Virus record (IMG/VR): IMGVR_UViG_3300044701_002494
Span: 1 to 64,000 of that record
Direction: 5' to 3' (one strand)
Length of the DNA stretch: 64,000 nt
Origin: a virus
A program made the position numbers and the translations under genes. Positions 6,427 to 34,678 of this stretch are shown here, piece by piece (within the stretch, counting starts at the first letter, position 1; every line of letters starts with the position of its first letter). Under the pieces are notes generated by a model that was not told where the DNA came from, did not search any database, and was given only the letters and a program-made list of their open reading frames with translations.

Positions 6427-6533
6427 TACTTTTTCTTACCTCCATTTTTTGCCTTTTTGGCAGTAGCATTACCTTGATTTTGCTTTTTATTACCAGCAGA
6501 ACCTTTTTTACCTTTATTTGGTGATTTAGACAT
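6426..6533 (-). CDS. 35-aa Lys/Gly-rich basic peptide (MSKSPNKGKKGSAGNKKQNQGNATAKKAKNGGKKK)
   Basis: Hand translation; GAGGAG Shine-Dalgarno and TGATG coupling. Confidence 0.6.
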   Translation of the reverse strand: MSKSPNKGKKGSAGNKKQNQGNATAKKAKNGGKKK

Positions 6534-6949
6534 CATAGATCTCCTCTTTGGAATGGTTTTTCTTCATCAACTTTTGCTTCGAGTGCTTCAACTCTTTCTT
6601 CAAGAGAAGAATCTGACGCTTCAGAATATCCAGTATCAACTAAAGGTAGTTCTTCAGTTCTTGTTTGAACTGGTTCTTCCCAAACTGGTTCTGGTGGTGT
6701 AGGAGGAGTTTCTACAAACTCTTCTCTTTTTGGTTCTGCTTTTTTCTCATCATCATCGTCACCTTTCTTCATGGTATTAATACCAAAAGTAGCAGCGGAT
6801 GCTGTAAAAACAGTCGCAATAAATGTTGGGTCCATCTTAGATAAAGCACCTGCATAACTTGCAGTCAGAAGAGCAGCAGCCCAACCAAGAATAGCAACAC
6901 GGATCACTGTGTTCATACAAGTTTCCCTTTTTTTAGTTTTGTTGTCCAT
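6533..6949 (-). CDS. Two-TM membrane protein with acidic tail, holin candidate
   Basis: Two hydrophobic helices; immediately downstream of lysozyme. Confidence 0.6.
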   Translation of the reverse strand: MDNKTKKRETCMNTVIRVAILGWAAALLTASYAGALSKMDPTFIATVFTASAATFGINTMKKGDDDDEKKAEPKREEFVETPPTPPEPVWEEPVQTRTEELPLVDTGYSEASDSSLEERVEALEAKVDEEKPFQRGDL

Positions 6950-6967: not shown

Positions 6968-7423
6968 TTAACCTTTTTTCCAAGATTCACCTTCTGCTTT
7001 TCTCCTACGTGCAAGTCCTGCTTCTACATTTGAACCAGGATTTCTGTATAGGTATAAAGCATCGGGAACTAAGTCCCATTCTTTATTCTTCAGGCGTTTA
7101 GTAATAGTATTAAAGTTATCACCACCGTAAAAACCGGCACCAAGATTATAAGCAAAGCTGAGCAGAGCGCCTCTTTTTCCATCTGACATTTCATTCCAAT
7201 GTGGGATTTTACGGAGTGCAGGAAGGAATTGATTCTTGCACTGACTGATTAATAATTCGTCTGCTTCTTGCTGGGTAATCTTATCACCCATTTGGAATGG
7301 TTGCCCATTCTTATTTCGGGTAGAACCCCAACCGATTGTAATTGGAAGTCCACCAGTTAAGGGATCAGGATATGCTGATAAATGACATCCTTCAAATTCC
7401 TTGATTAATTTGATACCCATCAT
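6968..7423 (-). CDS. Lysozyme (glycoside hydrolase family 24) domain, probably expressed as a -1 frameshift fusion from 7704
   Basis: IKEFEG...YPDP...TIGWG catalytic E/D/T, SFAYNLG, GLARRRKAE. Confidence 0.92.
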   Translation of the reverse strand: MMGIKLIKEFEGCHLSAYPDPLTGGLPITIGWGSTRNKNGQPFQMGDKITQQEADELLISQCKNQFLPALRKIPHWNEMSDGKRGALLSFAYNLGAGFYGGDNFNTITKRLKNKEWDLVPDALYLYRNPGSNVEAGLARRRKAEGESWKKG

Positions 7424-7444
7424 AGGGACATCATCACCACCACT

Positions 7445-7489
7445 TGCGACAGCAGGAGCAGAAGCACCGCCGCCGCTAGTTACTTTCCC
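7445..7489 (-). promoter_or_regulatory. Programmed -1 ribosomal frameshift signal
   Basis: G GGA AAG heptamer (7489-7483) directly before TAA, 6-nt spacer, GCGGCGGC/GCTGTCGC stem; -1 frame open into lysozyme. Confidence 0.75.
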
Positions 7490-7704
7490 AGAGATTTACC
7501 ACAATGTGGACATACATCTCCAGCAGGAGCAGAAGCACCAGCAGATGATCCACCACCCTTACCTCTATAAATTTCCGCCCAGTCTGCGTTATCTTCAAGA
7601 TAATCATTAGGAAGATTATCTTCTAACCACTGAACTGCTTTAATATGACTTGGGTTTCTATCGTCATAAAATTTAAAAAAGTTATGTAAATCAACTCTTG
7701 CCAT
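7480..7704 (-). CDS. 74-aa N-terminal domain protein (MARVDLHNFF...CPHCGKSLGK); 0-frame product of the frameshift gene
   Basis: GGAGG Shine-Dalgarno before ATG at 7704; homologous to the N-terminus of 7803..8474. Confidence 0.8.
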   Translation of the reverse strand: MARVDLHNFFKFYDDRNPSHIKAVQWLEDNLPNDYLEDNADWAEIYRGKGGGSSAGASAPAGDVCPHCGKSLGK

Positions 7705-7831
7705 CGTTTCCTCCGAAATACTTTTGATAGAGTTCGTTTGCTTCCTTATGCTTTCCGTTATCAGCAAGATCCTTAATTACCTTAAGCATCTTAGCTTTAA
7801 AATTAGTCGAAGATCCTTCCCCACCCATCAT
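7691..7831 (-). CDS. 46-aa hypothetical (MMGGEGSSTNFKAKMLKVIKDLADNGKHKEANELYQKYFGGNDGKS)
   Basis: Hand translation; AGGAGG upstream; bridges two genes. Confidence 0.5.
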   Translation of the reverse strand: MMGGEGSSTNFKAKMLKVIKDLADNGKHKEANELYQKYFGGNDGKS

Positions 7832-8474
7832 TGCCTCCTGGACACCAACGGTGCTTAAGAACTGCTTTGGTGTAAATGGTCTTCTTACCGTTAGTTACAG
7901 GACCTGAATAATTATCATTTAAAGAACCATAAGGATCATTTACATAATATCCCTTCCCATCTGGTGTCTTACCGATTACAACACACATATGCCCACCAGT
8001 AGGTGCAGATAAAGAACCCCTGTGCAGAATACCAATAACAACAGGTTTGCCTCTATCAAGGCTTTTATCAATATCAGCAAAAGAAAGATTGTAGCTAAAG
8101 TGTGACTTAACTCCATAACCCGCCAAAACTTTTGTCTGTACGGAGTGATCAGTCGTATCACCAATTGCGAATACTTTTTTAACGTATTCATCATCACCTT
8201 TAATGCTTCCTGGCTTGAGGAATGCAAGGCACATAGCGCACGATGAAGAGTTGCAAGTTCTATGTGCATCTCTATAATTGTCTACCTGATTAAAATAAGG
8301 AACATCTAAAACTGCAGGTGTTGGTGGAGCAGTTCTAAAAATACTTACCCAATCAGATTCAGAATCATCTAAAAATTTTTCTGGTAGGTTATCTTCTAAC
8401 CACTGAACTGCTGCAACATGGTTGGGGTTTTTATCATCATAATACTTAAAAAAGTTATGAAGATCTAGGGTCAT
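7803..8474 (-). CDS. Peptidase C39-like cysteine peptidase with shared N-terminal domain
   Basis: LDVPYFNQ...CNSSSCAM, GGHMCVV and VNDP (Q-C-H-D catalytic pattern). Confidence 0.8.
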   Translation of the reverse strand: MTLDLHNFFKYYDDKNPNHVAAVQWLEDNLPEKFLDDSESDWVSIFRTAPPTPAVLDVPYFNQVDNYRDAHRTCNSSSCAMCLAFLKPGSIKGDDEYVKKVFAIGDTTDHSVQTKVLAGYGVKSHFSYNLSFADIDKSLDRGKPVVIGILHRGSLSAPTGGHMCVVIGKTPDGKGYYVNDPYGSLNDNYSGPVTNGKKTIYTKAVLKHRWCPGGNDGWGRIFD

Positions 8475-33541: not shown

Positions 33542-33737
33542 AATTAATAGGATGATACTTCAAATATTCTCTAAAAGTGAGTTTCATTTCTTTCTGCGTC
33601 ATACCACAATGCTTTGCGGCAGCAGGAAGAGTCATTTTAGCACGAAAGAGACCTTCATTTGCCTCTTTCACATTCTGTGGTGTTGTTTTGACTGGATACT
33701 CTACCAGTAACGCCTTGTTGATTTTATATGGATTCAT
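33528..33737 (-). CDS. Small HTH-like hypothetical protein
   Basis: MTLPAAAKHCGMTQKEMK. Confidence 0.7.
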   Translation of the reverse strand: MNPYKINKALLVEYPVKTTPQNVKEANEGLFRAKMTLPAAAKHCGMTQKEMKLTFREYLKYHPINYDQS

Positions 33738-34678
33738 TGAAATTCACACTCACACATAATTTCAGTTAAACAGGCAAGTATATTGATTTCTTGATCTGCT
33801 ACAAATGCTGACTGATACTGATACTTAGCAAGAACAAGCACAGCAGCAGGAATGCTATTGTTTTCAAGGGCATTATAAAGAGCATCGTAAATACGACGCA
33901 GAAGTACAGTGACATCATTATCAAGATTAGATACCACCCACTTACGGACTTCAGAAAAGTTCTTTTCCCTAAGGTTTTTGATAAGTTCATTTACAGATAC
34001 ATCAGAGAAAGTTGCAAGGATACCAGAGTCAATTTTACCACCCGTAGAATACCTCTGAATTTCGTTTAGAACTCTTCGGAAATCAGGGAAATGTTTTGAT
34101 ACCAGTTCCGCAACGACTTTTTGATCATACTCAATCTTTTCCGCATCCAAGATTTGCTGGAGTCGTTTGAAGAAACTTCCTGCAAGTTGTGCTTTTTGCT
34201 TTCCCTTAATTGTGAAGTCGATGACGGCACATCGTGAGTGGAGGGGTTCGATGATCTTGTTCTTGTAGTTGCAGGTGAAGATGAATCGGCAGTTGTTATA
34301 AAATGCCTCAATATTCGCCCGTAGTAGGAGTTGAACGTCGTTGCCTGTGTTATCTGCCTCATCGATGATGATGACTTTGTGTTTAGAAGATCCCGTAAGT
34401 GAGACGGTCGAAGCGAAGTTCTTCGCTTGGTTCCGTACAGTATCCAAGAAACGTCCTTCGTCGGATCCGTTGATGACATAATAATCTGCTCCTAATTCGT
34501 TACATAGTGCCTTTGCAATTGTAGTTTTACCAATACCAGGAGGTCCAGCAAGAAGAAGGTTTGGAATCTCCCCCTTCTCCACAAACTCCTTAAATGTTTT
34601 TTTAGTTTCATCAGGAAGAATACAATCGTCAATTACTTGAGGACGGTATTTTTCCGTGAGAAGAAATTCACTTGCCAT
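33734..34678 (-). CDS. gp44: Clamp loader large subunit (T4 gp44)
   Basis: EKYRP, GPPGIGKT, DEAD, SRC. Confidence 0.95.
   Translation of the reverse strand: MASEFLLTEKYRPQVIDDCILPDETKKTFKEFVEKGEIPNLLLAGPPGIGKTTIAKALCNELGADYYVINGSDEGRFLDTVRNQAKNFASTVSLTGSSKHKVIIIDEADNTGNDVQLLLRANIEAFYNNCRFIFTCNYKNKIIEPLHSRCAVIDFTIKGKQKAQLAGSFFKRLQQILDAEKIEYDQKVVAELVSKHFPDFRRVLNEIQRYSTGGKIDSGILATFSDVSVNELIKNLREKNFSEVRKWVVSNLDNDVTVLLRRIYDALYNALENNSIPAAVLVLAKYQYQSAFVADQEINILACLTEIMCECEFQ

Follow-up and report, generated by a model that had tools for sequence, protein, structure and literature searches.

Programmed -1 ribosomal frameshifting has been described in tailed phages for tail chaperones, transposases and some capsid proteins. 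In bacteria, the standard -1 signal is a slippery heptamer of the X XXA AAG type with a 3' hairpin at a distance of 5-9 nt; G GGA AAG is the site of the lambda G/GT genes, where it gives a few percent of frameshifting, and hairpin-assisted sites reach tens of percent. The frameshift of the lambda G/GT tail assembly chaperone was reportedly described by Levin et al. in 1993 and by Xu, Hendrix and Duda in 2004, the latter paper being cited in PMC5506516. Escherichia coli dnaX (tau/gamma) and orfAB of the IS3 family also use -1 frameshifts, with an X XXA AAG-type site, tRNA-Lys(UUU) and a 3' hairpin a few nucleotides downstream; IS3 elements obtain their fusion enzyme by frameshifting only, and dnaX has an upstream Shine-Dalgarno (SD)-like stimulator and a frameshift product that is the shorter one. 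In the two-domain endolysin gene described here, from a T4-like freshwater cyanophage, the linker very probably contains a programmed -1 ribosomal frameshift. The gene lies in the first 64 kb (64,000 nucleotides, hereafter the window) of the 96-kb IMG/VR viral contig IMGVR_UViG_3300044701_002494, a metagenome-assembled fragment with a CheckV completeness of 46%. The source phage is a T4-like freshwater cyanomyovirus (Kyanoviridae) with a cyanobacterial host, and the closest named genomes are those of the Synechococcus phages DSL-LC02 and DSL-LC03, with DNA identity of about 81% over the lysin region.

Endolysins made in two forms from one gene have been described for Lys170, LysIME-EF1, CTP1L/CD27L, LysP7951 and phi2638A (PMC9430671; PMC4777826; PMC7098653; PMC12203907). 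In these systems internal initiation yields a free binding domain, which associates with the full-length enzyme (1:1, 1:3 or 1:5), and this assembly controls activity (PMC9430671; PMC4777826). Such arrangements were considered unlikely for Gram-negative hosts, and the survey of two-polypeptide endolysins makes no mention of frameshifting (PMC9430671). Full-text literature searches turned up no endolysin gene or lysis enzyme with reported frameshifting, in agreement with the remark in the initial annotation of the window that such frameshifts are not known for lysins.

Probable frameshift junction of the endolysin gene

All genes and elements of the window that are positioned below lie on the minus strand. 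The first open reading frame, ORF1 (7480-7704), starts with the ATG at 7704, is preceded by the SD sequence GGAGG 5 nt upstream and, as delimited in an alignment of 25 variants, encodes a 74-aa 0-frame product consisting of an N-domain, a Gly/Ser/Ala linker and the tail DVCPHCGKSLGK. The N-domain (residues 1-47, 7564-7704) is a small helical module. The tail VCPHCGKSLGK (7483-7515) carries a CPHC knuckle predicted to be present in both products of the gene; the peptide is kept in the 0 frame and its codons vary synonymously. ORF1 ends in CTG GGA AAG TAA, in which the slippery heptamer G GGA AAG (7483-7489), reading X XXY YYZ in the 0 frame, is directly followed by the stop codon (7482-7480), TAA in the window and TAG in other variants. 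In the -1 frame a TAA stands at 7498-7496, and reading is open from 7495, just 2 codons ahead of the heptamer; the heptamer lies within the overlap of the two open frames, which is only about 13 nt long. From 7495 the -1 frame reads GKVTSGGGASAPAVASGGDDVPMMGIKLIKEFEG... and meets no stop until 6968-6970, passing through the linker VTSGGGASAPAVASGGDDVP (7424-7483) into a GH24 phage lysozyme (6968-7423; 151 codons from ATG ATG plus stop). The lysozyme matches Pfam PF00959 over its full length (profile positions 1-125 of 125, E 3.1e-22, 79.7 bits versus a cut-off of 22.3) as well as PHROG endolysin families. The predicted transframe product has 245 aa, with the predicted junction peptide VTSGGGASAPAVASGGDDVPMMGIK.

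Everything that the initial annotation had stated on ORF1, its GGAGG, its terminal codons and the heptamer holds, as does its reading of a -1 frame that runs without a stop into a GH24 lysozyme. The 8-bp stem GCGGCGGC/GCTGTCGC that it had placed 6 nt past the heptamer is also present, as part of a 10-bp GC-rich stem (7446-7476) that is the candidate stimulatory hairpin. Taken as sequence features, the X XXA AAG site, the tRNA-Lys codon in the A site, the stop codon next to it and the hairpin at 6 nt match the textbook bacterial -1 signal. A phage-encoded tRNA-Lys(UUU), the decoder of the slippery A-site codon AAG/AAA, is found at 415-490 within a cluster of six tRNA genes.

In the proposed mechanism, ribosomes would start at ATG 7704 and translate the N-domain, the flexible linker and the CPHC knuckle. 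At G GGA AAG, tRNA-Gly would occupy GGA in the P site and tRNA-Lys would occupy AAG in the A site, with the stop codon next and the GC-rich hairpin 6 nt downstream. The majority of ribosomes would terminate there, releasing the 74-aa protein with N-domain and knuckle, and a fraction would slip back by one base (GGA to GGG, AAG to AAA), then read GTA, the Gly/Ser/Ala linker and the GH24 lysozyme, producing the 245-aa protein composed of N-domain, knuckle, linker and lysozyme. One gene would yield two proteins with a common N-terminus, their ratio being set by the RNA signal and the catalytic form depending on the slip. Frameshifting is presumably the minority outcome.

The variation among relatives points to translation of the -1 frame. 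The spacer between heptamer and lysozyme has one of six lengths (51, 54, 57, 63, 66 and 69 nt), each divisible by 3, and is stop-free in the -1 frame in 27 of 27 variants. Two variants from two samples (L107 and L108) offer no possible start (ATG, GTG or TTG) from the heptamer to the catalytic EFEG, and the lysozyme could therefore be made there only by read-through from ORF1; in a further variant (L092) a TTG is the sole possible start in this interval. The heptamer is invariant in all 27 variants, 10 of which came from a search without a heptamer requirement, and codon usage in these 10 indicates that it is under selection. Among codons with an invariant residue, the third base varies in 20 of 25 in the N-domain and in 90 of 121 in the lysozyme (74-80%); the three third positions of the heptamer region (Leu-NNG, GGA, AAG) are invariant, and the stop codon is always adjacent. 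The preceding codons of the tail vary (TGT/TGC, CCA/CCT/CCG, CAT/CAC, GGT/GGA/GGC). No conserved upstream SD-like element was found at the junction in the same 10 variants. Both domains are under purifying selection, with N-domain protein divergence of up to about 23%.

The heptamer GGGAAAG is rare in the window, with 3 copies in 64 kb on both strands versus 9.2 +/- 2.8 expected. The recurrence of the junction layout in 37 independent contigs marks it as more than a chance arrangement. A second in-frame G GGA AAG occurs at 34205-34199 in a 314-aa ORF (33734-34678), without an adjacent stop or a GC-rich hairpin; the -1 frame closes there after 24 codons, and this copy is probably due to chance.

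The window hairpin, folded with its flanks, has a minimum free energy (MFE) of -22.3 kcal/mol (z = -2.2 versus dinucleotide shuffles). A stem of 7-11 consecutive pairs is present in 23 of 23 unique junctions, with its first base exactly 6 nt past the heptamer, and is built from differing sequences (GCGGCGG.., GGGGCAGC.., GGGACAGC.., GGGGGTAGTGG..). Within the GGGGCAGC/GCTGCCC class, double changes from G-C to A-U (L083) and from C-G to U-A (L093) retain pairing, each altering an amino acid. Alignment of the junctions with MAFFT followed by RNAalifold gave no meaningful consensus, with differing loop lengths and misaligned 3' arms, and was replaced by anchored folding and a covariance model built from five junctions, from which the alignment was then derived. 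This model recovers 21 of the 21 unique junction variants searched and none of 15 in-frame loci. In the model-fitted alignment, 97.8% of cells pair versus 92.1 +/- 1.2% in shuffles (0/500), the covariation score is 0.270 versus 0.183 (0/500), and controls slid out of register pair at 31-85%. Compared with the linkers of in-frame relatives, the stems of the frameshift type are longer (10.1 versus 8.0 bp), richer in GC pairs (6.3 versus 3.6) and more stable (MFE -19.4 versus -15.3 kcal/mol). A by-eye search for a pseudoknot revealed no conserved complementarity between the loop and downstream sequence. An intrinsic terminator was rejected, as no U-run follows the stem.

Relatives and gene neighbourhood

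In DSL-LC02 and DSL-LC03 the N-domain, linker and lysozyme form a single in-frame protein of 222-223 aa, with a linker such as GKKSSAAPASAPAAAAPVVGGDDVPQMGIK; relative to these genes the window linker contains about 65-68 extra bases. The 80 closest IMG/VR lysozyme loci comprise 64 that are in frame or have no nearby N-domain match and 16 with an offset of 2 mod 3. All 16 offset loci share the ORF1 end VCPHCGK[S/P]LGK, encoded with [C/T]TGGGAAAGTA[A/G], and a -1 frame leading into the lysozyme. A degenerate scan of IMG/VR for the tail and heptamer identified 37 independent contigs from many samples, representing 27 unique variants in a constant gene context. The fusion is encoded in frame by 53 unique IMG/VR genes, as it is in DSL-LC02 and DSL-LC03. 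The expectation, stated with the initial annotation, that homologues would keep a heptamer plus stop at this junction is borne out by the 27 variants in 37 contigs, with one qualification. Simple in-frame fusions that lack a slippery site make up the majority of homologues, those of the nearest named phages among them, and the predicted frameshift is therefore a trait of a subgroup. The cassette is absent from GenBank phage records, where matches end at residue 47.

Proteins with a knuckle in frame with the lysozyme were also found, known as proteins only and from sources other than IMG/VR. P0011 reads ..VCPHCGKPLTGEVEG.. / ..GSVCPHCGKPLTGEVEGTSPS.. in frame, where frameshift variants are predicted to read ..VCPHCGKPLGK followed by VEG.., and P0008 reads ..VCPHCGKPLGESPSP.. 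in frame; the -1 junction predicted for L093 is ..GSVCPHCGKPLGK followed by VEGAVSS... The occurrence of near copies of the predicted junction in frame suggests that the fusion is the functional form of the lysozyme and that the knuckle is part of both products. P0005, P0027 and P0106, from other metagenomes, are in-frame endolysins with the same linker and the variant knuckles CPKCGK, CSKCGR and CSECGK; the CxxCG motif therefore predates the frameshift and has a wider spread. When IMG/VR was scanned for CPHCGK genes in frame, the matches listed were all from unrelated contexts.

In a tree of the flanking domains, frameshift and in-frame genes are interspersed; strongly supported branches require 2 or more changes, and parsimony gives 6. 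One row of this tree (L116) is an artefact of a contig end. A single origin of the frameshift allele is thus unsupported on this tree, and the mixing of the two gene types suggests that the cassette was gained, lost or exchanged repeatedly. In the window, a 19-nt perfect direct repeat encloses the knuckle, heptamer and stop, with the upstream copy at 7521-7539 and the downstream copy, 71 nt away and overlapping the hairpin, at 7450-7468. Each copy has the same codon phase in its own frame, and the pair is confined to the close lineage of the window. Recombination between the two copies would remove the cassette and leave an in-frame N-domain-lysozyme fusion without the knuckle.

The gene located upstream of ORF1 (7803-8474) encodes a second lysin, an in-frame fusion of the N-domain to a C39-like cysteine peptidase (Pfam PF13529, E 1.3e-14; PHROG 10051, endolysin), and the gene neighbourhood with this peptidase is the same in DSL-LC02 and DSL-LC03. 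The N-domain is common to the N-termini of this peptidase and of ORF1, forming the direct repeat D1 with 77% identity; it matches PHROG 10051 and 3617 and, in PHROG matches and homologue comparison, was seen only beside lysin catalytic domains. A 393-aa protein of Synechococcus phage S-CREM1 (1015-2196 of L325) has the order GH24 lysozyme, N-domain, C39 peptidase, which means that the N-domain can stand between two catalytic domains. From its sequence context, the N-domain appears to be a module of cyanophage lysins. Profile searches found no relative of it in Pfam, PDB or ESM Atlas. In the ESM Atlas, the 74-aa ORF falls into a cluster of 110 members. The knuckle (CPxCGK) weakly matches DUF7575 and the first half of the C2H2 zinc finger. 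AlphaFold2 (AF2) models, used for the helix count alone, show three short helices for ORF1 at low confidence (pLDDT 57) and are likewise of low confidence for the in-frame fusion (pLDDT 45), because the alignments are shallow.

A 46-aa ORF (7691-7831) with a weak match to PHROG 4698 overlaps both neighbours, the C39 gene at its end and ORF1 at its start; in DSL-LC02 a hypothetical gene of 127 aa takes this place. Directly downstream of the lysozyme, at 6533-6949, a 138-aa DUF6450 protein with one hydrophobic helix and an acidic tail is encoded, which may belong to the lysis cassette as a membrane component. In Synechococcus phage S-PM2 (L324), the lysozyme homologue at 2574-2984 seems to be N-terminally truncated, its longest ORF starting past the catalytic EFEG region; the annotation there is limited to a 72-aa 'putative lysin', and the adjoining N-domain-C39 gene is intact.

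Rival readings and proposed role

Several points weigh against a programmed frameshift. The transframe protein is a prediction from sequence comparison. The pattern scan required the heptamer, and the unbiased sample consists of the 10 variants found via lysozyme similarity. The window hairpin alone is modestly better than shuffles (z -2.2), and the covariation counts come from a model-fitted alignment of related sequences. The Ala/Gly-rich linkers of the in-frame relatives fold fairly well too, because Ala and Gly codons pair with each other, and composition therefore accounts for part of the structure. The ATG ATG (7423-7418) at the start of the window lysozyme leaves room for some independent initiation. 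Finally, relatives do well without the frameshift; since they manage with a plain fusion, the short product would be an addition and not essential for lysis in this phage group.

The locus could instead consist of two ordinary genes, in which an insertion split an ancestral fusion, ORF1 supplies a free N-domain, the lysozyme is translated from ATG 7423, either through a weak ribosome-binding site or by ribosomes that reinitiate past the stop of ORF1, and no frameshift product matters. The paired ATG codons would suit this arrangement, as would the stand-alone lysozyme without an N-domain in S-SRM01 and the extra linker DNA relative to the nearest named phages, bounded in the window by the 19-nt direct repeats. 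A non-coding spacer, however, would not keep a length of 3n and a stop-free lysozyme frame, as the spacer always does here, and a split gene needs neither the invariance of the heptamer nor the pairing and 6-nt spacing of the hairpin. In addition, L107 and L108 lack any start codon upstream of the catalytic motif, 7423 has no clear SD ahead of it in the window sequence, and the Met-Met at the domain border is equally conserved in in-frame fusions, being therefore uninformative on initiation. On balance, two independent genes are very unlikely. Internal initiation could also accompany frameshifting, giving three products: the free N-domain, the full fusion and a free lysozyme from Met 7423. All of the frameshift evidence is compatible with this, most variants of either type have a Met at the border of the domains, and internal starts are frequent in endolysin genes of Gram-positive phages (PMC9430671). 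Against it stand the lack of an SD-like sequence at a proper distance and of the Met in L092, L107 and L108, and nothing in the data requires a third product; we consider this combination unlikely, if less so than the split gene.

An assembly or sequencing artefact might be suspected in a metagenome-assembled fragment as incomplete as this one, as might a decaying gene. The recurrence of the same layout in 37 contigs from many samples and purifying selection on both domains, at the N-domain divergence given above, argue against this explanation, which has hardly any probability left. Transcriptional slippage was rejected, as there is no long homopolymer run, and so was bypassing of the T4 gene-60 type, as no matched take-off and landing codons giving the lysozyme frame were found.

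The purpose of the predicted frameshift may be either a limited dose of lysozyme or a supply of N-domain in free form, which could associate or compete with the lysozyme fusion and with the N-domain-bearing C39 peptidase. Tentatively, and with considerable doubt, we propose that the frameshift determines in what ratio the subunits of a multi-part lysin are made, or that the free domain holds the enzymes inactive until late infection. In the former case, the abundant 74-aa N-domain, with CPHC as half of a zinc site, would combine with the rare fusion, perhaps via a shared metal ion, into a lysin with few catalytic heads, possibly including the N-domain-C39 peptidase encoded next door. In the latter, the free domain would keep the enzymes inactive till late infection, and frameshift efficiency would control the dose and timing of lysis. 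The efficiency of frameshifting could depend on the phage tRNA-Lys(UUU). If either proposal is true, this would be the first lysis enzyme controlled by recoding, and two-isoform endolysins would for the first time be represented in a phage whose host is of the Gram-negative type.

Comparison with known systems

The predicted system shares with lambda G/GT an identical heptamer, a -1 shift, an abundant short and a rarer long product with a common N-terminus (the ratio in the window presumably being of this kind) and a position conserved across phages. It differs in that the lambda genes serve tail assembly, whereas the window gene serves host lysis and its extension is an enzyme. Lambda is not known to need a strong 3' structure and its stop codon is not adjacent, unlike the window junction with its adjacent stop and conserved hairpin at 6 nt. 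The window pair is not of the G/GT type, as it combines a lysin N-domain with a GH24 lysozyme beside a C39 peptidase, and there is no tail tube or tape-measure setting. The X XXA AAG-type site, tRNA-Lys(UUU) and 3' hairpin are common to dnaX and IS3 orfAB, and the fusion enzyme produced by the slip alone is common to IS3. In contrast to the window, dnaX has an SD-like stimulator and a shorter frameshift product, and the proteins of dnaX and IS3 are unrelated.

The in-frame endolysins of DSL-LC02, DSL-LC03 and many uncultured Kyanoviridae have the same N-domain (83-85% identity), linker type and lysozyme (92-93% identity). They lack the CPHC knuckle, heptamer, stop and frame change and are made as a single product. 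Closely related phages carry three kinds of allele, the frameshift type and in-frame types that have or lack the knuckle, and represent a natural experiment, in which lysis timing and burst size can be compared directly. Gene callers split the endolysin into a 74-aa hypothetical protein and a lysozyme, which affects the annotation of freshwater cyanophages.

In function, the nearest parallel is with two-isoform endolysins of the Lys170/CTP1L type; as there, one lysin gene is predicted to give a full-length enzyme and a free non-catalytic domain. Those systems use an in-frame internal start, release a C-terminal wall-binding domain and belong to phages of Gram-positive hosts; in the window, the short form is N-terminal, arises by termination versus frameshifting, and the host is a cyanobacterium. 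Judged by its sequence, the window system falls outside this family, to which it is similar in outcome only. Two-isoform endolysins, a subject of current interest, have so far been limited to internal starts, free C-terminal domains and phages of Gram-positive hosts. An internal start can free only a C-terminal piece, and a stop combined with recoding would thus be the mirror solution for an N-terminal module. The mechanism itself is known; the apparent novelty is its use in a lysis enzyme to yield a free N-terminal module.

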